Of a DNA stretch of 41,996 nucleotides, positions 328 to 38,496 are shown piece after piece. How positions within the stretch are numbered: position 1 is the stretch's first letter; each line of letters opens with the position of its first letter. Source of the DNA: a virus (lineage: Duplodnaviria > Heunggongvirae > Uroviricota > Caudoviricetes); IMG/VR virus record IMGVR_UViG_2681813224_000020; one strand, 5' to 3'. The notes under the pieces are model-generated. The model was not told the origin of the DNA. It searched no databases and saw nothing but the letters and a program-made list of their open reading frames with translations. The translations under genes and the position numbers were made by a program.

Positions 328-975
328 ATGAGTGAATTTAGTAATCTTTTAAATAGCATACCTGGATGGTTATCCTCCTCCCTCACAGCTCTAGTTGGTA
401 CTCTTATTGGCGGATGGTTTACCCTAAAAGGAGTTACCCAACAAGCTAAGCTGTCTAAAGTAGAGACAGAAAGAGAATCCCTTGAATTACAACTTTCAGT
501 ATTAAAAGGAGTTAAGGGAGAAGTTTTCACCCTAATCAATTTATATAATAAAAGGATGAAAACACACATTGATAATATAAAACCGGGACAAATGTTGATT
601 CTCACATTCCCTGTAGGGGATGATAATTTCACATTCTATGAGCAAAATGCGAATGTCATTGCAAAACTAAATGATTCTGCTAGAGACTCAATAATTAACA
701 TATACACATATTCACGCTCATTAATACAATCATTTAAAGGAAACAACAAACTCATTGAGGATTATGAAAAAATCCTTATTGGCATGGCAGACAATAACAA
801 AGATAAAACCATGTATAAGAGATTACATGATGCAAAAATAAATATAATGGTAGATTATGCTCAAGGGATAAAAAATATTGATGCAGAGCTAAGAGATGCT
901 GTCAATAAGGGATTCGACATTATCGACCAAGAAGTAAAGTCACTACAAATGAAATTAAACAAATTAGCTTCATAG
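328..975 (+). CDS. Hypothetical membrane-anchored protein, AT-rich cargo gene next to the invertase
   Basis: 215-aa ORF; hydrophobic segment LTALVGTLIGGWFTL near the N-terminus, then a charged helical region; codon usage is visibly more AT-rich than the phage structural genes. Confidence 0.5.
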   Translation: MSEFSNLLNSIPGWLSSSLTALVGTLIGGWFTLKGVTQQAKLSKVETERESLELQLSVLKGVKGEVFTLINLYNKRMKTHIDNIKPGQMLILTFPVGDDNFTFYEQNANVIAKLNDSARDSIINIYTYSRSLIQSFKGNNKLIEDYEKILIGMADNNKDKTMYKRLHDAKINIMVDYAQGIKNIDAELRDAVNKGFDIIDQEVKSLQMKLNKLAS

Positions 976-1055: not shown

Positions 1056-1610
1056 TCATTTATCTCCGACCGGAAACTTCTTATACAAAGTCGATACGCC
1101 AACATCATAAATGATCGCCACCTTCTGGCGAGGAACTCCTGATGCAATTAGTCGCCCGGCCTGCGCCCATTGTTCTGGTGTAAGTTTGGGACGACGTCCA
1201 CCAATTCGTCCCTGTGCGCGAGCAGCTTCCAGTCCAGCTTTTGTTCGTTCAACAATCAGTTCTCGTTCCATTTCAGCCAGGGCCCCCATCACATGAAAGA
1301 AAAAACGCCCCATCGGTGTGCTGGTATCAATAGCATCCGTCAGGCTGCGAAAATTAACGCCACGTTCGCGCAACTCCTCAACCAGAATGACCAGATGCCG
1401 CATACTACGCCCCAGCCGATCCAGCTTCCAGACAACCAGAGTGTCACCTGCCGATAATGTCCTGAGCAGTTTTTTCAGTCCCGGCCTTTCGGACTTTGTA
1501 CCGCTTATCTTGTCTTCAAAAATCAGCTCGCATCCTGCACAGTTCAGCGCATTACGTTGTAGATCTGTGTTCTGGTCATTTGTTGACACACGTACATAGC
1601 CAATAAGCAT
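1056..1610 (-). CDS. pin: Site-specific DNA invertase, serine recombinase of the Hin/Gin/Cin/Pin family
   Basis: Translation MLIGYVRVSTNDQNTDLQRNAL... with the catalytic Ser motif YVRVSTNDQ and a C-terminal HTH. Start taken at the internal Met (ATG 1608..1610) preceded by GGGAGA; the ORF track extends to 1646. About 184 aa, the size of Pin. Adjacent to tail-fibre genes. Confidence 0.9.
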   Translation of the reverse strand: MLIGYVRVSTNDQNTDLQRNALNCAGCELIFEDKISGTKSERPGLKKLLRTLSAGDTLVVWKLDRLGRSMRHLVILVEELRERGVNFRSLTDAIDTSTPMGRFFFHVMGALAEMERELIVERTKAGLEAARAQGRIGGRRPKLTPEQWAQAGRLIASGVPRQKVAIIYDVGVSTLYKKFPVGDK

Positions 1611-1664
1611 GGTAGATCTCCCTGACAAAAGCAGGAATGATGCCATTTGCTCGTTATTTCTGCA

Positions 1665-1690
1665 TTTTCATAAACGTTGGTTTGGGAGAA
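1665..1690. repeat. Left recombination (crossover) site of the invertible segment, gix/hix-like
   Basis: TTTTCATAAACGTTGGTTTGGGAGAA; its reverse complement matches 3530..3555 at 20 of 26 positions, including a perfect 14-bp block TTGGTTTGGGAGAA. Internal dyad symmetry as expected for Din-family sites. Confidence 0.65.
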
Positions 1691-2038
1691 GCGGCGAAAA
1701 GGGATGTGGGCACAGGAGAAAATCAGATACCGGATATGTCAGCCTGGAAAAGAAATCCGAGTTCTAATCGCTGGAGAAAATTGCCTGATGGAACCATCAT
1801 TCAAATGGGAATATCAGCATCAGGGCCATTAGGCTCACCTGTAAATATCACCCTGCCGATATCTTTCAGCAATACCAATTATTGTGTTGTTGCATCGTAC
1901 GATAATGCACGGTCAGGTGTGTCAACAATGGTTAGTTTTGCAGCGTTACCTGTTTCACCATCGCAATTTTCCCTGATGTCATCTGTGACTGAGCAAGGAA
2001 TAAATCCTTTTGCTTACTGGATTGCTTTTGGAGATTAA
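1665..2038 (+). CDS. Alternative (currently silent) tail-fibre C-terminal variable exon; expressed only after inversion fuses it to the constant 5' part of the tail-fibre gene
   Basis: Same frame as ORF 1637..2038; NVGLGEA junction matches ENLGLGEG of the active gene; downstream sequence KLPDGTIIQMG... is typical of fibre tips. The ATG at 1637 is probably not a real start. Confidence 0.55.
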
Positions 2039-2041
2039 TAA

Positions 2042-2461
2042 ATGGATAGATACTTCTATTCACAAAAAGAAAATGGTTTTTTTACCGATTTAAATAAAGC
2101 ACCTTCAGATGCTGTTGAGATAACCACGGATGAATGGCTGTTACTACTGGATGGTCAGGATAATGGCATGAAAATAGTCAGCAATCAGGAGGGATATCCG
2201 GTTTTGACAGAGCAACCACCTTTATCAAAAGAAAACCTTATTGCATTGGCGGATTTGAAAAAAAGAAAACTTATTAATGAAGCCAACGAGCACATGAACA
2301 GCAGACAATGGCCAGGTAAAGCGGCTATTGGTCGTCTGAAAAGTGAGGAACTGGCGCAATATAATTTATGGCTGGATTATCTGGACGCACTGGAACTGGT
2401 TGATACCTCCAGTGCGCCAGATATTGAATGGCCTACGCCTCCGGCAGTTCAGGCCAGATGA
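2042..2461 (+). CDS. Tail-fibre assembly protein (alternative copy, Tfa')
   Basis: 139-aa ORF directly after the alternative fibre exon; C-terminal [26 protein letters not shown] parallels the C-terminus of the opposite-strand Tfa ([24 protein letters not shown]). Confidence 0.7.
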   Translation: MDRYFYSQKENGFFTDLNKAPSDAVEITTDEWLLLLDGQDNGMKIVSNQEGYPVLTEQPPLSKENLIALADLKKRKLINEANEHMNSRQWPGKAAIGRLKSEELAQYNLWLDYLDALELVDTSSAPDIEWPTPPAVQAR

Positions 2462-5756: not shown

Positions 5757-6109
5757 TACGCCTCCGATGTAACAGTCGTTATTCCATAAAGAGTGTCGAT
5801 TTCAGCGGAAAACATGACACGTCGGGTCGTGGTATCCACTGTCGTATTGAAAGAGAGGATTGATTTAACGCCCCGCGTTTCGAGGATGCGCTTACGGATC
5901 GCCAGGTTGTAGGTTTCCGGCTTCTGCTTACCGAGCACAGACTGGATCCACGGAGTCCCTTCGGTGGTGTCGAGAAACCATTGCCCATACCACAATTCGA
6001 ATCGCGTTTTCACAGCCTGTGCTACGGCCTCAGGCGAGTTAATCAGCCAGGTGTCATCACCGCTGCCAAAGGTGTAATCGCCATCGGCGTCTTCACGTCT
6101 GTATCGCAT
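5756..6109 (-). CDS. Baseplate protein (P2 gpW / T4 gp25-like)
   Basis: 117-aa ORF between the V-like and J-like genes; size and position typical. Confidence 0.6.
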   Translation of the reverse strand: MRYRREDADGDYTFGSGDDTWLINSPEAVAQAVKTRFELWYGQWFLDTTEGTPWIQSVLGKQKPETYNLAIRKRILETRGVKSILSFNTTVDTTTRRVMFSAEIDTLYGITTVTSEA

Positions 6110-6861
6110 CAGTTTACCCCATCAGTATTGCTTCCGCCGCGCTGAACACCACCATGAGTGTGCGTATCATCGATTGGCTTGCCGTTAGCCTTCACGCTCC
6201 CCAAAAACTCAACAGCACCAGTGATTTTTGAAGCCACACCAGAAACCACAGACCCCACCATGCCCCCCAACCAGGTTAACAGGCCATGAATGGTTACTTT
6301 CTCAGAAAAATCAGCCAGAGGGGTAACCACATCAAGACCACCCGGAGCGACAATTTTAATTTTCCCGGTATCAGGATTAAGCTCAAAATAGGTGCTGCCA
6401 TCGTCACTACGCAACTGTGTGGCACTGGTATTAATACCGCTAATCTTCCTTGCCTGCGACTGGGGACCGACAATACAAAACGCATCCGATAAATCATGCA
6501 TTCTGTCATCAACCGGCTCCTGTATCCCGCCGTTCTGCCACCAGAAATCGATGCAGCGATCGGCAAAAATCACCAGGCATTCATCGCCGGCTTCCACCGG
6601 GAAAGTTAACGTGCAGCCGCCGCCGCGCGGAAATATCACCGGCACATCCACCAACAGCGGGTAATTTTGGGTAATGCGGTTGCCGTCATTATCCTTTTCA
6701 ACCGAACGGATAGCAGGCTGCACAACTGCCGTCACCGCATCAGGATCGAATGACTGAATAATGCCAGGCAAGGCGACACGGATCTGGTTCTTTGTTGTTT
6801 CCCGTTCAGATTTGAATGTTTCGGCAAGGTCGCCGCTGCGGGTCTGGTCAGATACGGCCAT
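6109..6861 (-). CDS. Baseplate assembly protein V-like (central spike/hub)
   Basis: 250-aa ORF upstream of the W-like and J-like genes; Gly-rich C-terminus. Confidence 0.55.
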   Translation of the reverse strand: MAVSDQTRSGDLAETFKSERETTKNQIRVALPGIIQSFDPDAVTAVVQPAIRSVEKDNDGNRITQNYPLLVDVPVIFPRGGGCTLTFPVEAGDECLVIFADRCIDFWWQNGGIQEPVDDRMHDLSDAFCIVGPQSQARKISGINTSATQLRSDDGSTYFELNPDTGKIKIVAPGGLDVVTPLADFSEKVTIHGLLTWLGGMVGSVVSGVASKITGAVEFLGSVKANGKPIDDTHTHGGVQRGGSNTDGVN

Positions 6862-6880
6862 TTAGTAGGCTCCAGAAAGC

Positions 6881-6910
6881 AAAAAACCCGCCTGGTGGCG
6901 GGTTTGATTT
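6881..6910 (-). terminator. Rho-independent terminator closing the moron operon (minus strand)
   Basis: Stem CCCGCC / GGCGGG with loop TGGT; on the minus strand it is followed by TTTTTT. Lies between the small ORF (6923..7096) and the V-like gene. Confidence 0.6.
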
Positions 6911-6922
6911 ATAAGAACTTCA

Positions 6923-7096
6923 CTAACTATCTTTCTTGGGAAAAGTTGAAGGCTTGTCGTGATAGCTTTCCGTCATAATTTCGATATCCCCGAAAGGTAC
7001 TCTAGCCATAATCTCTTGCTCATAGTTATCTAGGAAAGAGACCTCAGGCTCACTTGGTTTAGGTTGTGGTTCATTTTGGTCTTCTGGACAGGACAT
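6923..7096 (-). CDS. Small acidic hypothetical protein (57 aa), second gene of the moron; absent from the ORF track (under 60 aa)
   Basis: Hand translation MSCPEDQNEPQPKPSEPEVSFLDNYEQEIMARVPFGDIEIMTESYHDKPSTFPKKDS; ATG at 7094..7096 lies 2 nt after the stop of the upstream membrane-protein gene; followed by the terminator. Confidence 0.35.
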   Translation of the reverse strand: MSCPEDQNEPQPKPSEPEVSFLDNYEQEIMARVPFGDIEIMTESYHDKPSTFPKKDS

Positions 7097-7098
7097 AT

Positions 7099-7629
7099 TC
7101 AAACCTTACTTATTAACATGCACGTTACAGAAATAATAAAAAATACAAATGACATAACCATCCATCGAAACAACTCATTTACAAACGCTGATTTTTCTTT
7201 ATGGATTTTCTCGATTCTATCAATAGCCCTACCATACATTATCAAATGAAATCTGACTGTGTCATCTCTACTACCCCTCAGAAGAAATTCATGTTGTTCA
7301 GGTGTTCGATGCACAGGCATTTTGGGAATATTTCTAAGTTCCCAACATTTCCATAAATAATAAAAACAAAAAACCAAACATACAAAACATGAACATAGAC
7401 ACAATAGAGACAATCTTGCGGATAGACTAGTCTTTAACTGTTGTCCCAGCTCAAAGGACCCAAAAACGGCTAATAATGCAGAAATCTCAACACCAAGCAC
7501 AGCAAGAAGAAAATTAGCTTTGTCCTCTAACCGCCTGTATGTTGTCTTAACTTCTTCATACCTGTCTCTCGAGTACGACAAAATCGTATCTACTTCAAGG
7601 CCAACAGCCTCATTCCTTTGATTGCACAT
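7099..7629 (-). CDS. Hypothetical integral membrane protein (AT-rich moron inside the baseplate gene cluster)
   Basis: 176 aa; N-terminal charged helix, then hydrophobic stretches FLLAVLGVEISALLAVFGSF, LSLLCLCSCFVCLVFCFYYLW and FRWMVMSFVFFIISVTCMLI; clearly AT-rich against flanking tail genes. Confidence 0.6.
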   Translation of the reverse strand: MCNQRNEAVGLEVDTILSYSRDRYEEVKTTYRRLEDKANFLLAVLGVEISALLAVFGSFELGQQLKTSLSARLSLLCLCSCFVCLVFCFYYLWKCWELRNIPKMPVHRTPEQHEFLLRGSRDDTVRFHLIMYGRAIDRIEKIHKEKSAFVNELFRWMVMSFVFFIISVTCMLISKV

Positions 7630-7635
7630 ATTGTA

Positions 7636-7989
7636 TTAATCGTCAACCTTCTTACAAGGAAACGAACCTATGATTCTCGGCGCATCCATGCTGTTCTGCA
7701 GTAGTTGGACATTCAAGAAACGCGTTTCGGTACCCGGACGGCGAATGAACTCGAAACCGTAATTGTTACCGTCTTTGGCTGGCATAAGCCCCATATCCGC
7801 CTTCATTCCATTACCGTTGCCGAGCGTTTTGATTTTCTGGGAGGTAACTGTCTCACCATTAATCCTGAACAATGAATCAGGAATCAACTCTAATTTGTAG
7901 CCACCACACTGAAGCGTGACACCGCCAGGATTCGCAGCAAATGCGAACCCCGGAAGGAAACAGAGTCCAATAACAATCCACTTTTTCAC
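7636..7989 (-). CDS. Small secreted/periplasmic hypothetical protein
   Basis: 117 aa; signal peptide MKKWIVIGLCFLPGFAFA/ANPGG; start overlaps the stop of the hub-like gene at 7989. Confidence 0.55.
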   Translation of the reverse strand: MKKWIVIGLCFLPGFAFAANPGGVTLQCGGYKLELIPDSLFRINGETVTSQKIKTLGNGNGMKADMGLMPAKDGNNYGFEFIRRPGTETRFLNVQLLQNSMDAPRIIGSFPCKKVDD

Positions 7990-9056
7990 TATCCTACCTC
8001 ACGCTGTAAAGACGACGCCGAACGAAGATCCGCCGCACCGCGCGCTTCGCACATCATATCCATGTACCACGCCTGGCCCCTTGTGTCGCCAGTGTACATA
8101 ATCCCGCGCACAATATAAACGCCATCCGTTGCGATGCTGGCAGGCTGCGATATGGTGCCGCTTAGCGTAATATTTCCGTCCGTGTTCTGGTCGGTGATCT
8201 GCCCACCAGCCATAGCGATATCGTTGTTCGACAACGCGGTGCGATATACGGAAGCCTGATCCAGTTGAATGAGCCCATTAACCCGGATGTTCGGATTAAT
8301 AAGCGCGCGGACGTTTACGCCGTTGCCGATGGTCTGCTGCGGCATGCCAATAAGCCCGGTAGCGCTGTTGAGCACAATCGCTTCGTGAACATATTCATTA
8401 TTCACCACCATCTGGCGCTGACCATCCACGAATTGCCATGTTGCGCCACATTGCCCGGCTACGTTATCCATTAGATGCCGCGTCATGCCAAAGAGCACCC
8501 GCCCCCGGGGGAATACAGTAGCAGGCATTTCAGGCGTCAGGCCTTCGGTCGCACCTTTGGCTTCGAAGTCTTTCATCAGCGCACGGTTCACATCAGCGAC
8601 CGTGTAACCGGCAGCCAGCGTCTGTGAGGTTATACTGGTGGCAAAAGCCAGATCAGTATCTGCTGCCTGAATCAGGACGTAGGAATCAACCGGACTGTCT
8701 TTTCCTGTGACCGAGTAGCGAATTTCACCGCTGAAAATCAGTCCGTAGTTGCGGCCATCTCTCTGGCCCACGTCCGCCGCGTCAACTTCCCGCACGGTCC
8801 CTACGTCGCTTGCTGACACCTCCGGCGCGATACCGTCGTAACCGGCAATCAGACGCACTTTCGAAAATTCCTGCCCGGTGATTCGGTTCACAGTATCTGC
8901 CGAGAGGTTATAAATTTTGATAGTCCCTACCCGGGACGCGCTGCTGATGTTGAACCAGTCGATCGTAAAGGTGACTTTGAAATCACTTAGCTCAATTCCC
9001 TGACCGTTCCCGTCCACAAGCTGCAGCTCGAAATGTCTCATCCAGTTCTGTGACAT
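7989..9056 (-). CDS. Tail/baseplate hub protein (P2 gpD / Mu gp44-like)
   Basis: 355-aa ORF downstream of the tape-measure gene and two small tail genes; the position is the main evidence. Confidence 0.5.
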   Translation of the reverse strand: MSQNWMRHFELQLVDGNGQGIELSDFKVTFTIDWFNISSASRVGTIKIYNLSADTVNRITGQEFSKVRLIAGYDGIAPEVSASDVGTVREVDAADVGQRDGRNYGLIFSGEIRYSVTGKDSPVDSYVLIQAADTDLAFATSITSQTLAAGYTVADVNRALMKDFEAKGATEGLTPEMPATVFPRGRVLFGMTRHLMDNVAGQCGATWQFVDGQRQMVVNNEYVHEAIVLNSATGLIGMPQQTIGNGVNVRALINPNIRVNGLIQLDQASVYRTALSNNDIAMAGGQITDQNTDGNITLSGTISQPASIATDGVYIVRGIMYTGDTRGQAWYMDMMCEARGAADLRSASSLQREVG

Positions 9057-24450: not shown

Positions 24451-24792
24451 TTACTCCTTAGAGCCACCAAACTTGTTACCGATTACTCGCATTGCAGCCC
24501 CACGAATAGCATCGACACCGATCAGCCCAACACCACCACCAATGGCAACAGAAAGCGATTTAGGCCATCCGACATACTCAAGAGCGGATGCAAAAGTCAG
24601 CGTCAGAGCACCACAGAGCAAAATCTCAAGCGTTTTTCGTTTCCAGCCGCCGCCACCGCCAAAATAGGCAATGCGCAAGCCAGCCATAACAATTGACATA
24701 ACCACTGCGCCCAACGGCGTATCTCCACGCCACCAACTTTGTAAGAGTTCCAGTAAGTCAGGCCAGGAATGAGGAGCATTGTGCATTTTCAT
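24451..24792 (-). CDS. Holin with dual-start motif (Met-Lys-Met)
   Basis: Start MKMHNAPH... preceded by GGAGGTG; hydrophobic segments GAVVMSIVMAGLRIAYF and TLEILLCGALTLTFASAL; immediately upstream of the endolysin. The ORF track adds 6 codons upstream. Confidence 0.65.
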   Translation of the reverse strand: MKMHNAPHSWPDLLELLQSWWRGDTPLGAVVMSIVMAGLRIAYFGGGGGWKRKTLEILLCGALTLTFASALEYVGWPKSLSVAIGGGVGLIGVDAIRGAAMRVIGNKFGGSKE

Positions 24793-24893
24793 ACTTCCCA
24801 CCTCCGCCATTACGGGGTGTTGTTGAAAGGCGGGCCCTGCGTATACGCCCGTAGGATTGGGTTATGAGCCGTCCTTCGGTGGGCCCTGAATAC

Positions 24894-25195: not shown

Positions 25196-25630
25196 TCATA
25201 CCAGCGTAGCGCAGTTTTTGCGTAGCGCACTAATACTTTTTTCATCCCTTTGAATTTCGACCTCAGGATCCATCTGAAGGCTCACACCCAGCATGCAGAG
25301 ACACCCCTCAATGAATCCCTCAGCTACCTGCAACTGCTGGCGGATAAATCCTTCAGAACAGCGACGCCGCCGCCCTATCTCACGTTTGCTTAACCCGTAG
25401 ACGTAGTACAGCATAATGACGTCCAGTTCCTCAGGCTTACGGACCTGCTGCAGTCGACAGACGCAAGCATCGATAATCAGGCCATCGTCGTCACAGCAAC
25501 TCAGCCTGCCAGGCGAGCTGCTGACTACCAGCCCTTTAAATCCCGCCGCTATTGGAGCCCAGCTCACTGTGGTGTTGCTATTGGCAGCCCAGCCACCCCA
25601 GCGCTCTAAAACCTGTTGAATATTACGCAT
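25196..25630 (-). CDS. Late-gene antiterminator Q (QuuD-like family)
   Basis: 144 aa; N-terminal MRNIQQVLERWGGWAAN... matches the start I remember for E. coli prophage QuuD-type antiterminators; CCDDD and Cys-rich motifs; immediately upstream of the late-promoter/terminator/lysis region. Confidence 0.75.
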   Translation of the reverse strand: MRNIQQVLERWGGWAANSNTTVSWAPIAAGFKGLVVSSSPGRLSCCDDDGLIIDACVCRLQQVRKPEELDVIMLYYVYGLSKREIGRRRRCSEGFIRQQLQVAEGFIEGCLCMLGVSLQMDPEVEIQRDEKSISALRKNCATLV

Positions 25631-32704: not shown

Positions 32705-34207
32705 GTGTCAACTTTGAGAATCGGTATGGAAATCCAAGAGTTTGTAAGTCACTATAAAAACCACCCTGTTCTATTCATTGGAACAGGATTTAGCCTACGG
32801 TATCTAGAAAACTCATTTAGCTGGGATGGTCTTCTTTTGAGTGTCGCAATGGAACTAACCGGTAATGCTGAGTTTTACTACGATTTGAAAGCTGAAAGCC
32901 TAGAAGGTGACGACTATCGATATGATATCTTAGCTACAAAACTTGAAGATATTTTTAATAAAAAGCTGGCAGAAGACCGTAACGGTAAGTTCAAAGACAT
33001 CAATGATGTTTTCTATGAGCACATGAAAAAAGGAAAAAAACTAAGTCGATTCAAAATTTATTTAACTTCAATACTTAAAGACCTAAAGATAAAAGAGTCA
33101 ATGATGGAGGAAATAAACAGCTTAATAAAAACAAGAAAAAACATAGGCTCCATCATTACAACAAACTACGACCAACTCGTAGAGAATATCTTCGAATTTA
33201 ACCCACTGATTGGTAACAACATTCTTTTAAGTAACCCATACGGTTCAGTTTACAAAATACATGGCTGTGTTAGTGATCCTAACAACATAATTATCACAGG
33301 TGAAGACTACGCAAACTTCGACAATAAATATGAGTTAATTCGCGCTCAATTACTCTCAATATTCATACACAACCCTATCATATTTATAGGGTATAGTATT
33401 AGCGATAAAAACATTAAGTACTTATTAAAAACCATATTCTCATACGTTGACTTAAATACCGAACTTGCAAAAAGGATAAAAGATAATTTCCTTTTGGTTG
33501 AATACGAAAAAGACAGCATGTCAACTGAAATTACGGAGCATGACATAGATATAGAAGGCATGTCTATCATAAGAATAAACAAAATAAAAACAAACAATTA
33601 CAAAGCTGTATATGATGCCATCTCTGGACTAGTTTTGCCAGTATCCGCAATGGACATAAGAAAGGTTCAAAAAGTTTGGAGTACCATCAAAAGTGGTGGT
33701 GAGATAAAGGTTAAAATTACAGAAAATTTAGATGAACTTCGCAATGATGAAATGGTCATTGCTGTTGGTTCAGAAAGAACCGTACAATATGTTTATCAAA
33801 CAAAATCTGAAATGATACAGAACTATTTTAAAATAGTTGACGAAGCAAACTCTCAGCTTATCGCATTACTGAATAAGCAAACCATAGCTAATAGCGAACA
33901 CTTTCCAATATACGCTTTTAGTTCTATCTGCCCTGAACTAGAAAATACCGAGACATACAGAAAACGGCAGCTAGATAAAATCATTGGTAACCTTTCTCGA
34001 ATTAAAACATGTAAGAGTGAGGCTGTGTCTATTGATGAAATACTAAAAGAAACGAAAGAGTATAAAGTTGCTAACACGATTATGTATTGCGTACTAAACG
34101 ATACTATTTCATTGAAACAACTACGAGATTATTTAACAAAACCAGGGCATAAAATTGATACCCAATACAGGCGACTTTTATGCTTGTATGATTATTTATC
34201 ATATTAA
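32705..34207 (+). CDS. SIR2-like (SIR2_2 / DUF4020-type) protein with a C-terminal domain of unknown function; candidate NADase-type anti-phage defence gene, AT-rich insertion
   Basis: 500 aa; motifs in order PVLFIGTGFS, SWDGLL, IITTNYDQLVE, YKIHGCVSDPNNIIITGEDY, NPIIFIGYSISDKN match the hallmark pattern of the defence-associated SIR2 family; codon usage is strongly AT-rich against its flanks; GTG start with RBS AGAGG; own terminator. Confidence 0.7.
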   Translation: MSTLRIGMEIQEFVSHYKNHPVLFIGTGFSLRYLENSFSWDGLLLSVAMELTGNAEFYYDLKAESLEGDDYRYDILATKLEDIFNKKLAEDRNGKFKDINDVFYEHMKKGKKLSRFKIYLTSILKDLKIKESMMEEINSLIKTRKNIGSIITTNYDQLVENIFEFNPLIGNNILLSNPYGSVYKIHGCVSDPNNIIITGEDYANFDNKYELIRAQLLSIFIHNPIIFIGYSISDKNIKYLLKTIFSYVDLNTELAKRIKDNFLLVEYEKDSMSTEITEHDIDIEGMSIIRINKIKTNNYKAVYDAISGLVLPVSAMDIRKVQKVWSTIKSGGEIKVKITENLDELRNDEMVIAVGSERTVQYVYQTKSEMIQNYFKIVDEANSQLIALLNKQTIANSEHFPIYAFSSICPELENTETYRKRQLDKIIGNLSRIKTCKSEAVSIDEILKETKEYKVANTIMYCVLNDTISLKQLRDYLTKPGHKIDTQYRRLLCLYDYLSY

Positions 34208-34228: not shown

Positions 34229-34256
34229 AAAAGCCGCCATTTTGGCGGCTTTTTAT
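34229..34256 (+). terminator. Rho-independent terminator after the SIR2-like gene
   Basis: AGCCGCCATTTTGGCGGCT followed by TTTTATTTATT. Confidence 0.55.
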
Positions 34257-34283
34257 TTATTAAATCCAACGGGTCCTTACTTG

Positions 34284-36359
34284 ATGCAAAAACTTTGGTT
34301 AGACCTCGAAACTTTCAGCGAAATCCCAATAAAAAACGGCACCCATGTCTATGCAGAAGGAGTCGAAATCATGTTATTCGCATGGGCAATCGACGAAGAC
34401 CCCGTCAGCGTACACGATTTAACCACAGACTATAACTTGCCGACACGACTACTGACAGCTCTCAGCGATGAGAGCGTACTAATATATGCACACAACAGCC
34501 ATTTCGATCGCACCATGTTGCGCCATGCATTACTGCACACTCCCCAATGTGTTGTTGCAGGTAGTGCCAAACGCTGGCGAGACACAATGGTACAGGCGCT
34601 GGCGCATGGTCTCCCGGGGTCTCTGGGGGAACTCTGCGAAATACTCGGCGTCCCGCAAGACAAAGCGAAGGACAAAGAAGGTAAAGCGCTGATCCAGCTG
34701 TTCTGTAAGCCCCGCCCGAAAAACAGCAAACTGCGCCGTGCCACCAGCAAAACCCACCCGGAAGAATGGCGGCGCTTTGTTGCTTACGCCGGACTGGATA
34801 TCGAGGCAATGCGCGAAGTCTATAAACGTCTGCCGAAGTGGAATTATCAGGGGACAGAGCTGGCGCTCTGGCATCGTGATCAGCAGATCAACGACCGGGG
34901 CGTCTGCATGGACATGCAACTCGCGCGCGCTGCGATCGAAGCGGTAGACCAGGAGCAAAAGCGCCTGGCAAAGCGTACACAGGAAATGACTGATGGCGAA
35001 GTGCAGGCAGCCACACAACGGGACGCGTTGATTAAGCACATTGTTGAATCCTACAGTGTGGAGCTACCAGACATGCAACGCAGTACTCTGGAACGTCGTA
35101 TTGCCGACCCCGATTTACCATCTGCCGTGAAAGAACTGCTGGCTATCCGCCTGCAAGCCAGTACTACCAGCACCAGTAAATACAAGGCACTGATGAAAGG
35201 CGTAAGCCACGACGGGCGCTTACGCGGTACGCTACAGTTCTGCGGGGCGTCACGTACCGGTCGTTGGGCCGGACGGCTATTCCAGCCCCAGAACCTTCCC
35301 CGCCCTTCACTAAAACAGGAACAAATAGACGAAGGCATCGAAGCACTGAAAGCCGGATGTGCAGACCTGCTGTTTGACAATATCATGGAACTAACCAGTT
35401 CAGCGTTACGTGGCTGCATTATCGCGCCAACAGGCAAAAAACTGGTGGTAAGTGACTTGTCAAACATTGAAGGCCGTATGCTGGCATGGCTGGCGGGAGA
35501 AGAATGGAAACTGAATGCATTCAGAGAGTACGACGCCGGAACGGGTCCGGACTTATATAAACTGGCGTATGCAAAAGCTTTCGATATTGCACCAGATGAT
35601 GTTGATAAACACATGCGTCAGATCGGTAAAGTCATGGAACTCGGTCTGGGTTATGGAGGTGGTGTATCGGCTTTCATCACTTTTGCTCTGGTTTACGGTC
35701 TCGATCTCGACGAGCTGGCGAACGCCGCACTGCCAAACATTCCCCGCGATGTTATCCGCGAGGCGAAAAGCTGGTACGACGAATCGGTTAAACGTAAGTC
35801 GACCTTTGGCCTTTCCGAGCGTGTATTCATCGCATGTGACTCGCTCAAGCGCCTGTGGCGCAGGGCGCACCCGGCGACCTGCGATTTCTGGTACGAGCTG
35901 GAGCGCACTGTCCGCACAGCAATCGCCACACCGCAAAAAACATTGTATTGCGGTTATCTTAAAATCCGACGTGATGGCGCGTGGCTGCGCATACAGCTAC
36001 CATCCGGACGCGCTGTATGCTACCCGTCTCCGGTTATCGAAAAAGGGAATATCACCTATATGGGTGTTAACTCTTATTCGCGTAAATGGCAACGACTCAA
36101 AACCTACGGCGGAAAGCTGGTGGAGAACGTCACCCAGGCGGCCGCCCGCGACGTTCTGGCCGGAAACATGCCGCTTATCGAAGATGCCGGTTACAGCATT
36201 GTGTTGACGGTACACGACGAGGTGATCACCGAAGCACCTGACACAGAAGATTTCAACGATAAAGTGCTTTCCGCGCTTCTCTCCACTAACCCCGAATGGG
36301 CGCCCGATATCCCACTGAACGCTGGCGGTTTTGAGGCGTACCACTACCGTAAGGATTAG
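34284..36359 (+). CDS. Family-A DNA polymerase (3'-5' exonuclease plus polymerase domains)
   Basis: Exo I LDLETFSE; motif [19 protein letters not shown]; motif [17 protein letters not shown]; motif C TVHDEV. Start taken at [11 protein letters not shown] (ATG 34284); the ORF-track start 34242 lies inside the upstream terminator. Confidence 0.85.
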
Positions 36360-36412: not shown

Positions 36413-37174
36413 ATGATGCAGGATCTCAATGAAATGGCTCTCAAATACCCACACCCTGTCGAAACTTTTCGTCAATTTTTAGTCGAATCCGGATTTGATG
36501 TTACCGGAGAAGAAAACAAAGCCGGTCATGATTGTTATCGTTTAAGTAATGGTGCCATCATAACGCTTTACCACACCGGAACGATTTTGATTCAAGGCTC
36601 ACAAGCGGCAAAACCAGAGGTTGAAGCCATTATTAATGAACACTTGGGTAACGCGCCAGCTCAACGAGTTCAGCCAGCCCCGGTTCAAGAGCCAGCCAAA
36701 AAGATTTTCATCGTTCACGGTCACGACCATGCAGCAAAAGAGCAGCTTGAGCTCATTCTTCATAAGCTTGGGTTACCTGATCATTTTATTTTGCAGAATA
36801 CAGGTGGTACTGGACTTACGATAATTGAAGAACTGGAGCGTGAAATTGGTCAAGGGCAGACAGCGACTCGTTTCGGCATTGTTCTTCTCACTCCCGATGA
36901 TGTGGGATACTCCAAAAGAGACGGTCAAGAAGCAGCCCTGCCCAGGGCTCGTCAAAATGTAGTTCTAGAAATGGGGATGTTGTTATCATCACTCGGCCGC
37001 AGTAACGTGGTCATCTTGCAGAAGCAACACCTTGAACAGCCTTCTGATGCTGCGGGTATTCTTTATCTCAACTTTAATGATCATGTTCGAGAAACTGTAC
37101 CTCGCTTAATCCAGCGCCTTAAACAGGCCGGTTTCACATTTAATGAAGCTCAAATAGCGAACGCTTCATCTTAA
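36413..37174 (+). CDS. Two-domain protein: small N-terminal domain plus C-terminal Rossmann-like nucleotide-binding domain resembling TIR-like / SLOG families; candidate accessory gene
   Basis: 253 aa; C-terminal domain motifs KKIFIVHGHDHAAKEQ, NTGGTGLTIIEELERE, FGIVLLTPDD; Pro/Gln-rich linker APAQRVQPAPVQEPA; RBS AGGAAA; own terminator. Family assignment is tentative. Confidence 0.4.
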   Translation: MMQDLNEMALKYPHPVETFRQFLVESGFDVTGEENKAGHDCYRLSNGAIITLYHTGTILIQGSQAAKPEVEAIINEHLGNAPAQRVQPAPVQEPAKKIFIVHGHDHAAKEQLELILHKLGLPDHFILQNTGGTGLTIIEELEREIGQGQTATRFGIVLLTPDDVGYSKRDGQEAALPRARQNVVLEMGMLLSSLGRSNVVILQKQHLEQPSDAAGILYLNFNDHVRETVPRLIQRLKQAGFTFNEAQIANASS

Positions 37175-37732: not shown

Positions 37733-37876
37733 TTATGGTTTTTTGGGTGGTGGAGCTGGCTGGGAAGTTTGCTTCGAAGGTTGAAAACCATTATTAGCCA
37801 AGTCATTTTTAGGCTGATACCCTTTTTCAATAGGGGTATATCCATCTTCCTTATAACTTCTTTTGGTATCTGACAT
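37733..37876 (-). CDS. Small Pro/Lys-rich hypothetical protein (47 aa), translationally coupled to the upstream membrane-protein gene; absent from the ORF track
   Basis: Hand translation MSDTKRSYKEDGYTPIEKGYQPKNDLANNGFQPSKQTSQPAPPPKKP; its ATG shares one base with the TGA of the 206-aa gene (TGATG overlap). Confidence 0.3.
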   Translation of the reverse strand: MSDTKRSYKEDGYTPIEKGYQPKNDLANNGFQPSKQTSQPAPPPKKP

Positions 37877-38496
37877 CAGTTGCTTTCTCCATTATTGCAT
37901 GTTGGTAGTTCAAAACGGAAAAACTCTAAATTTTCTATATCGTTACCTAAAATTAATATTCCTAATGTTGAAACTCGAGGGCGTTCAAATCCCCCATCAT
38001 CGTTTAGAACCCAATGTTCCTCAAGATAAATTTGCTCTGGCTCTGGTGCACTGGAAGCAAATGAGTTAGCCCCAAACTTGCCTGCTATTTTTTTACCATT
38101 TTTTAGCGTAATAATCATCCAACAGGGGACTTTTAACCCAAAGAAATAATCCCAAGCTCTTCCGGTAGGATGTGGCATATAATTACATAACCAACGCCAA
38201 GTTCGCATCCAAGAGAAAAATATCGTTAACAATATTGGGCTAATGAATAAAATCACCAAGTATAAAGCACAATAAAGAACAGGATGTTTGAGATATACAC
38301 CCTCAGATTCTATAAAATATATAGGAGCAAACCATACTGCGTAATTTATACAGCTATAAGAAACAATTTCCACAATCGCTTTAGAAGTATCAAAAGCGGT
38401 ATTAGGATGAATAACACTATAAACTTTCATACTTATAAAACCAGGAATAACGAAAAGCAAAAATATAATAATTTTACTTTTTTCCCAAATATCCAT
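37876..38496 (-). CDS. Hypothetical integral membrane protein, AT-rich antisense moron inside the early replication operon
   Basis: 206 aa; hydrophobic segments IIIFLLFVIPGFI, AVWFAPIYFI, VLYCALYLVILFISPILLTIFF, then a soluble C-terminal domain; RBS AGGGG; opposite strand to all neighbours; strongly AT-rich. Confidence 0.6.
   Translation of the reverse strand: MDIWEKSKIIIFLLFVIPGFISMKVYSVIHPNTAFDTSKAIVEIVSYSCINYAVWFAPIYFIESEGVYLKHPVLYCALYLVILFISPILLTIFFSWMRTWRWLCNYMPHPTGRAWDYFFGLKVPCWMIITLKNGKKIAGKFGANSFASSAPEPEQIYLEEHWVLNDDGGFERPRVSTLGILILGNDIENLEFFRFELPTCNNGESN

Follow-up and report, generated by a model that had tools for sequence, protein, structure and literature searches.

An exchangeable two-gene cassette encoding a predicted three-pass membrane protein in the baseplate operon of a SEN34-like Escherichia coli prophage

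Organization of the locus

The 41,996-nucleotide stretch of DNA considered here (hereafter: the window; IMG/VR record IMGVR_UViG_2681813224_000020) comes from an E. coli prophage, a temperate SEN34-like (Brunovirus-like) myovirus, whose tail module is of the type found in Salmonella phage SEN34 (Brunovirus) and its relatives. The subject of this work is a small cassette located among the baseplate genes, which comprises a gene for a 176-aa inner-membrane protein with three predicted transmembrane (TM) helices and a gene for a 57-aa acidic, proline-rich partner protein, and which is followed by an intrinsic terminator (Table 1). All late genes of the prophage are located on the minus strand, from the holin gene at position 24810 to the tail fibre genes, and the 1.3 kb around the cassette exhibits 99.6-100% identity in eight complete genomes, including those of IAI1 and ECONIH2.

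An earlier inspection of this DNA, made without database searches (the sequence-only reading), had placed the pair between the genes for the baseplate hub and the spike. The downstream neighbour is indeed the central spike gene. On the upstream side, however, the cassette does not directly adjoin the hub gene: the two are separated by a gene whose 117-aa product carries a Sec-type signal peptide and contains two conserved cysteines. This additional gene is coupled to the hub gene, the stop of which overlaps with its GTG start; a spacer of 6 nt separates it from the ATG of the cassette, and it is kept in relatives carrying every type of cargo described below. That a baseplate operon should include a gene for an exported protein as a fixed component is odd; possible roles of the product are receptor blocking, exclusion, or action in the periplasm as a tail factor.

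Table 1. Features of the cassette and of the late genes discussed in the text (coordinates refer to the window)
Feature	Coordinates	Strand	Evidence and remarks
Baseplate hub gene	9056..7989	-	phrog_196 'baseplate hub', E 2e-88; PF22759 weak
117-aa protein, Sec-type signal peptide, two conserved cysteines	7989..7636	-	phrog_3443
176-aa inner-membrane protein, three predicted TM helices	7629..7099	-	phrog_18554, E 5e-60; ATG to TGA
57-aa acidic, proline-rich partner protein	7096..6923	-	phrog_18231, E 2e-6
Intrinsic terminator, downstream edge of the cargo slot	6905..6884	-	hairpin and T-run
Central spike gene, Gp138-type N-terminal domain and apex motif	6861..6109	-	PF18352, E 4.5e-44; PF18946
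Exchangeable cassette (cargo slot), ~740 bp	~6906-7645	-	boundaries of megablast pieces and junction alignments
Q-type antiterminator, head of the late operon	25630..25196	-	PF06530 Phage_antitermQ, E 9e-51
Promoter-like match TTGTAA-16-TACAAT, 9/12	7657..7630	-	chance-frequency quality
Promoter-like match ATGACA-16-GATAAT, 10/12, inside the 176-aa open reading frame	7265..7238	-	chance-frequency quality
The phage's own holin	24810..24451	-	PF05106; ~17 kb from the cassette

The two genes of the cassette

As the sequence-only reading had noted, the cassette is more AT-rich than the tail genes that surround it: the GC content is 0.362 in the 176-aa gene and 0.420 in the 57-aa gene vs 0.52-0.55 in the flanks (hub gene: 0.546; spike gene: 0.518), and the GC content at third codon positions is 0.316 in the 176-aa gene vs 0.618 in the hub gene. 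The ratios of nonsynonymous to synonymous substitution rates (dN/dS) calculated against the Salmonella homologue are 0.10 for the 176-aa gene and 0.18 for the 57-aa gene, hence both open reading frames (ORFs) are real genes under purifying selection; dN amounts to 0.20 for the small partner vs 0.044 for the three-TM gene. It had also been anticipated that routine annotation would miss the small ORF, and this turned out to hold for both ORFs, since RefSeq contains no feature under the cassette (window 6921-7632) in the genomes of ECONIH2, IAI1 and AVS0790 (NZ_CP014667.1, NC_011741.1, NZ_CP124436.1). Surveys of defence systems that are based on gene content would thus miss the window allele. The RefSeq locus tags jump by one number at the unannotated cassette, and the small ORF is present as ECIAI1_2628 in the original GenBank annotation of IAI1; in the ~50%-identical allele of strain H10407 both genes are annotated.

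The 176-aa protein contains three hydrophobic segments, as claimed previously, which encompass residues 37-62, 67-96 and 150-176 (Kyte-Doolittle windows >1.6). In the AlphaFold2 (AF2) model (predicted local distance difference test score, pLDDT: 84) helices are formed by residues 13-58, 69-97, 110-118 and 121-175, with TM1 and TM3 reaching into a cytoplasmic helical bundle. The modeled protein is helical throughout, and a nucleotide-binding appendage could not be accommodated in it. An N-in/C-out topology is predicted from the model in combination with the positions of the K and R residues. A sequence profile search against the PDB returned only noise.

The ATG of the 57-aa ORF is positioned exactly 2 nt after the TGA of the upstream gene (TGA-AT-ATG), in agreement with the original description. 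The stop-NN-ATG junction and an AAGG sequence 8 nt upstream are kept in the homologues, and the 57-aa gene is presumably translationally coupled to the 176-aa gene; two adjacent small genes with coupled translation represent the arrangement of type II toxin-antitoxin pairs. The small protein (isoelectric point 4.25; 13 D+E vs 5 K+R residues) exhibits no hydrophobic segment and is probably disordered. Alignments of the phage-borne homologues reveal a conserved core Y-E-x-x-I-M-x-x-V-P-F-G-x-L-x-x-x-T-E-S, and no DNA-binding domain was matched in the Pfam and NCBIfam scans.

A fixed slot with exchangeable cargo

Sequences matching the surrounding 1.3 kb were found in 306 of the 5,426 complete E. 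coli genomes, in most cases limited to the flanks. The window allele is present in only 8 of the 306, while a second allele (~50% protein identity, e.g. in enterotoxigenic E. coli (ETEC) H10407) is present in 21. Other relatives carry different cargo on flanks that are 95-98% identical: a 79-aa DUF4282 protein with two TM helices, a 190-aa DUF2335 membrane protein, a YafO-family toxin together with a 190-aa partner, or a secreted 121-aa protein. Yet other genes occupy the slot in SEN34 and in Yersinia phage YP3. All these cargos have a low GC content (0.34-0.47), and among the relatives inspected none with an empty slot was found.

The similarity of the backbone ends within the last 2-3 codons of the 117-aa gene, following the conserved ...FPCKKV, and resumes just upstream of the terminator stem (megablast pieces at query positions 846-1301 and 1-106/121 of window 6800-8100), which delimits the exchangeable unit listed in Table 1. 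Altogether, these genome comparisons show that the pair is an exchangeable accessory cassette in a fixed cargo slot of the baseplate operon and is non-structural. The slot has precise boundaries, the stop of the secreted-protein gene on one side and the terminator on the other, in a common tail family of enterobacterial prophages, and could be mined for further accessory genes. The YafO cassette was found in E. coli AR_452 (locus L046, 1333-2323) and in CUVET20-1667 (locus L043, 2605-3595), with a backbone ~96% identical; there the YafO gene is preceded by that of a 190-aa protein without a family match, which may be an unusual antitoxin.

The sequence-only reading had interpreted the cassette as a moron. 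The extra DNA between conserved genes, the deviant GC content and the terminator downstream agree with this interpretation, but an own promoter could not be demonstrated, as only chance-level matches were found. Since no promoter of its own is visible, the sequence alone does not suffice to call the cassette a moron in the strict sense (of Juhala/Hendrix).

The terminator and transcription of the slot

A strong terminator had been predicted after the small ORF, and its presence was confirmed. The hairpin has a 9-bp stem with 6 G-C pairs, is followed by a T-run (AAACCCGCC-ACCA-GGCGGGTTT then TTTGCTTTCT), and is located 22 nt before the ATG of the spike gene. It folds with -16.8 kcal/mol (z = -2.6 vs shuffled sequences) and represents the top-ranked and the sole convincing terminator-like site in the 19.6 kb of late genes, where the remaining sites occur at the chance level (23 found vs 18.2 expected). 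However, it had been regarded as the cassette's own terminator, and this is wrong: the hairpin precedes the spike gene whatever cargo sits upstream, and it is kept in combination with five different cargos. Phage YP3 exhibits a different hairpin with a T-run at the equivalent place. As an element common to all cargos, the terminator belongs to the backbone of the slot and not to the cassette.

Of the two promoter-like matches (Table 1), the one at the upstream edge could not serve the start of the 176-aa gene, because its -10 hexamer abuts the ATG, and the one inside the 176-aa ORF, if real, would give rise to a transcript that encodes only the 57-aa protein. Rfam and repeat searches over the cassette returned only the terminator hairpin, with a sub-threshold score, and no flanking repeats.

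Q proteins of lambdoid phages cause late transcription to ignore terminators of this kind. Since the phage encodes a Q-type antiterminator, late transcription should read through the hairpin. The conservation of the terminator in spite of such readthrough points to an additional, Q-independent transcription of the slot, i.e. in the lysogen.

A conserved two-gene module beyond tail operons

In 1.84 billion representative proteins, searched exhaustively with phmmer, only 16 relatives were identified, which indicates that the family is small. Scanning of GTDB species-representative genomes with the alignment of the close family revealed no relative, and tblastn searches of 50,697 phage and 72,556 plasmid records gave no match. 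In every phage-borne homologue (43-52% identity; from ETEC H10407, metagenomic contigs and IMG/VR prophages) the three-TM gene is followed by a gene for an acidic protein of 57-63 aa at an equivalent junction.

The distant relatives (~25% identity) are not part of tail operons. Some adjoin genes for a Y1 transposase and a methylase or Tn7-like TnsB/C/D genes, and others belong to an integrase-containing island of Pseudomonas or are located at the end of a different prophage. In seven further contexts the three-TM gene is followed by an ORF for a very hydrophilic, Pro/Gln/Asn/Thr-rich protein of 40-74 aa, which either overlaps the stop (ATGA) or starts within ~10 nt (six of these small ORFs were called, and the uncalled one, at locus L016 in Pseudomonas, was read from the sequence). 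One distant copy of the module (180 aa and 53 aa, 4-nt overlap; locus L040, 5001-10543) directly adjoins the Tn7-like genes for TnsD/TniQ, TnsC and TnsB, and because of this location it looks like transposon cargo.

In a clade of the Pantoea type (P0026, P0037 and P0039, from Pantoea ananatis and metagenomes) the small protein is fused C-terminally after TM3, which results in proteins of 275-283 aa. The fused tails exhibit a conserved motif L-G/S-V-A-L-E-S, and a separate small ORF from another locus (L041, 942-1127) aligns with the tail of P0026 (BLASTP E 1e-7; common motif LGV-x-LES). The existence of the fusion argues that the two products act together. In the AF2 model of a natural fusion the tail is disordered and not docked to the rest of the protein. 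With the C-terminus predicted to be periplasmic, the fused tail would be expected on one side of the membrane and the unfused partners, which have no signal peptide, on the other.

These gene neighborhoods show the pair to be an instance of a conserved mobile module, in which the gene for a three-TM protein precedes that for a small hydrophilic protein. Tail operons are already known to contain accessory genes; this two-gene family, in turn, is uncharacterized, with all members labelled 'hypothetical' or 'transmembrane protein', and our search for literature on the gene pair found none.

Relationship to PycTM effectors

The families considered by the sequence-only reading were not recovered: profile searches (Pfam, PHROGs, NCBIfam and PADLOC) gave no match to SLATT, Cor, Sie or holin families, and no SLATT match at E <= 1 was found in Pfam among the 17 family members. 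The PHROG families matched by the two proteins (18554 and 18231) are entries without an assigned function.

The 176-aa protein itself matched PycTM in PADLOC (E 2.6e-4, 19 bits). The PycTM models (PDLC02363-5) match 8 of the 17 family members (best E 2e-5), and among 5,027 PADLOC models they alone scored below E 0.01; two '2TM effector' matches, each limited to a single member (E ~0.03), are at the background level. In three distant members (P0022, P0027, P0032) the PycTM matches are collinear over the full length, reversed-sequence controls gave zero PycTM matches, and four 90%-identical homologues carry a 'faint' precomputed match to PF18967 (PycTM).

PycTM and PucTM are three-TM (pJV1-SpdB3 family) antiphage effectors of the Pycsar and Pucsar systems, of which EcPucTM forms a hexameric cylinder with a ~15 A channel lined by TM2 and has an abortive-infection phenotype (bioRxiv 10.64898/2026.08.12.744502; PMC11224242). 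The three TM helices and the helical cytosolic region of EcPucTM described there (bioRxiv 10.64898/2026.08.12.744502) are both predicted for the 176-aa protein. No cyclase gene was found beside any family member examined, nor in PADLOC and Pfam scans of the other ORFs of the window. PycTM is the sole family touched by the 176-aa family in PADLOC (E 2e-5 to 1e-3) and among the precomputed Pfam matches. The likeness is weak, and membership of the 176-aa protein in the PycTM family is not established by these comparisons.

Possible functions of the pair

The interpretation that we tentatively favour, with somewhat less than even confidence, is that the pair constitutes a self-contained membrane effector and its small regulator, carried by the prophage as cargo for phage-versus-phage conflict, in which a PycTM-like ring would be shut by the small protein. 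We infer oligomerization, channel activity, regulation by the small protein, expression in the lysogen and a defence phenotype. According to this model, the 176-aa protein would insert into the inner membrane in the N-in/C-out orientation and assemble into a channel-capable ring, as do PycTM/PucTM effectors, and the disordered 57-aa protein, co-made by translational coupling, would hold the ring closed. A superinfecting phage would remove or outcompete the small protein (for instance, if this protein is labile and host synthesis is halted), upon which the channel would open, the membrane would depolarize and the infection would be aborted or excluded. A nucleotide signal would not be needed, because a cyclase and a nucleotide-binding domain are both absent. 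Transcription that enters the slot in the lysogen would end at the conserved terminator, and during lytic growth the Q-modified polymerase would read through it. If this is true, a compact, signal-independent membrane effector would be added to the known prophage-borne defences, and the PycTM-type scaffold would turn out to be controllable by a small peptide instead of a cyclic nucleotide.

A bolder version of the proposal, which we find doubtful, would make the pair the founding member of cyclase-independent relatives of PycTM pores, in which a three-TM ring is gated by a disordered 'plug' peptide supplied either in trans (the 40-74-aa ORF) or in cis (the Pantoea-type tail), and the module a new two-gene abortive-infection or toxin-antitoxin system, disseminated via tail slots of prophages, Tn7-like transposons and genomic islands. 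We speculate that a plug located inside the lumen of the channel would explain its action from either side of the membrane.

Several results weigh against the proposed membrane effector and its regulator. Pfam and NCBIfam scans of the three small proteins revealed nothing significant, Pfam scans of the 17 family members and of the homologues with the precomputed match did not report PF18967, and the PycTM likeness is far below any curated family threshold. A profile search outward from the distant members (E <= 10) did not reach any annotated PycTM protein and returned more unannotated relatives, mostly from Pseudomonas. Three fold searches found only generic helical bundles. BLASTP produced no alignment between the 57-aa protein and a distant small partner, with the likeness to such partners limited to position, composition and a short motif, and a cytoplasmic location of the unfused small protein is at odds with the fused forms, the C-terminus of which is predicted to be periplasmic. 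Finally, as regards expression in the lysogen, the only promoter-like matches of the cassette are at the chance level.

The pair might alternatively mediate non-lethal superinfection exclusion, with the three-TM protein blocking the genome injection of related phages in the manner of HK97 gp15. We regard this as unlikely, though not far-fetched. The cassette is embedded in a tail operon, as is the gene 15 moron of HK97, the 176-aa protein is predicted to reside in the inner membrane, the terminator implies transcription without Q, and most cargos of the slot are membrane or secreted proteins (DUF4282 with 2 TM helices, DUF2335, SEN34_21 and the secreted 121-aa protein), all of which would suit an exclusion function. 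Yet sequence similarity to the known Sie, Cor and Imm families is absent, the faint similarity that was detected is to a killing effector, and the occurrence of the module beside Tn7-like genes and in islands without a tail context is easier to reconcile with a self-contained system than with an exclusion function adapted to a single phage. According to this explanation, the three-TM protein would interfere with incoming tape-measure or ejection proteins or with their membrane partner, and the small protein would serve as an accessory or stabilizing subunit.

Addiction is another explanation, according to which a membrane toxin and a labile small antitoxin would stabilize the carrier element and any phage defence would be incidental. 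The two-gene architecture with translational coupling, the fast evolution of the small partner (see the dN values above), the presence of the module on several kinds of mobile elements and the YafO toxin cassette in the identical slot of relatives all point in this direction. However, the natural fusion observed in one clade would be unusual for a toxin and its antitoxin, and the small protein is without a DNA-binding domain that could serve autoregulation. We consider a toxin-antitoxin function quite unlikely.

A late lytic function, with the pair expressed only together with the tail genes under the control of Q and modulating the timing of lysis, the exclusion of late secondary infections or the protection of progeny, appears very unlikely. 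It would be consistent with the absence of a visible separate promoter, with the location of the cassette 6 nt after a late gene on the same strand and with the presence of the Q antiterminator. On the other hand, the phage already has a holin gene, with further ORFs just downstream of it; the cassette is absent from most close relatives, and hence is dispensable for lytic growth; the module is found also on non-phage elements; and a conserved terminator at the edge of the slot would be purposeless for Q-modified transcription.

A role as a virion or baseplate assembly component, suggested by the position between baseplate genes that recurs in several related prophages, is effectively refuted by the integral three-TM nature of the protein, the unrelated genes carried instead by relatives with 95-98% identical flanks, the atypical composition, the absence of the protein from the 50,697 deposited phage genomes and the occurrence of the family outside phages.

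Other accessory genes in the prophage

The early/replication region of the prophage contains two candidate defence genes on the plus strand, which flank a gene for a family-A DNA polymerase (34242-36359). The first of them (32705-34207) encodes a 500-aa SIR2-like protein (PADLOC PDC-S25, E 4e-158; PF13289) with a stretch resembling ThsA, and the second (36413-37174) encodes a 253-aa TIR protein (PDC-S35, E 2e-109; PF10137) of the CAP12/Pycsar-effector TIR type. Together they resemble a split Thoeris system. We considered a link between the cassette and these TIR and SIR2 genes and rejected it: the cassette is present in a minority of related prophages, and it also occurs in inspected neighborhoods without SIR2 or TIR genes.

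At the tail-fibre end of the window, an AT-rich ORF of 215 aa (local GC ~33%, no family match) is located beside a Hin-type invertase gene and genes for an alternative tail-fibre C-terminus and assembly (window 328-975 (+), 1056-1646 (-) and 1637-2461 (+)). With an invertible host-range segment beside it, this end has the appearance of a second cargo site. The gene for a DUF6338 protein of 206 aa (37876-38496, minus strand) has the opposite orientation and is located between the TIR gene and a gene for an SNF2-type helicase, near the integrase gene; it may represent a further accessory gene.

Comparison with known systems

Unlike holins, the 176-aa protein exhibits no match to a holin family and is not encoded in the lysis cassette, as the phage's own holin gene is found far upstream (Table 1). 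With the SLATT and CBASS 2TM effectors of conflict systems it shares the character of a small helical membrane protein, but it has three TM helices instead of two.

The YafO-type II toxin-antitoxin pairs of AR_452 and CUVET20-1667 resemble the cassette in being composed of two small coupled genes, mobile and present in the identical slot, with the smaller partner evolving faster. In contrast to YafO, which is a ribosome-dependent RNase, the putative toxin of the cassette would be a membrane protein, and, unlike in type II systems generally, its partner is devoid of a DNA-binding domain and the pair is fused in some lineages.

Gene 15 of HK97 is a moron embedded in the tail operon, the product of which blocks genome injection. 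Like this and other tail-operon morons, the cassette comprises extra genes between tail genes, with deviant composition, a terminator downstream and an inner-membrane product, and related phages either do not have it or have other content. It differs in that no own promoter is visible, the terminator forms part of the slot irrespective of the cargo, and there are two genes and not one; its proteins also have no sequence similarity to gp15.

The RexAB system of phage lambda is a prophage-borne two-gene system, in which the small polytopic protein RexB is thought to depolarize the cell upon superinfection under the control of the second protein. The cassette is likewise a prophage-borne pair of genes that includes a small polytopic inner-membrane protein, but there is no sequence similarity between the two systems. 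RexA is a large cytoplasmic activator, whereas the second protein of the cassette is a disordered peptide of 57 aa, and the rex genes are located in the immunity region and transcribed with cI, whereas the cassette is part of the late operon.

PycTM and PucTM, finally, are similar to the 176-aa protein in being small inner-membrane proteins that have three TM helices and are mostly helical in their cytoplasmic part, and the 176-aa family is, like them, carried on mobile, defence-type loci. In contrast to PycTM/PucTM, the family has no neighboring PycC or PucC cyclase gene in the members examined and the 176-aa protein has no nucleotide-binding appendage; instead, the members of this family are always paired or fused with a small disordered protein, a kind of partner that has not been described for PycTM.

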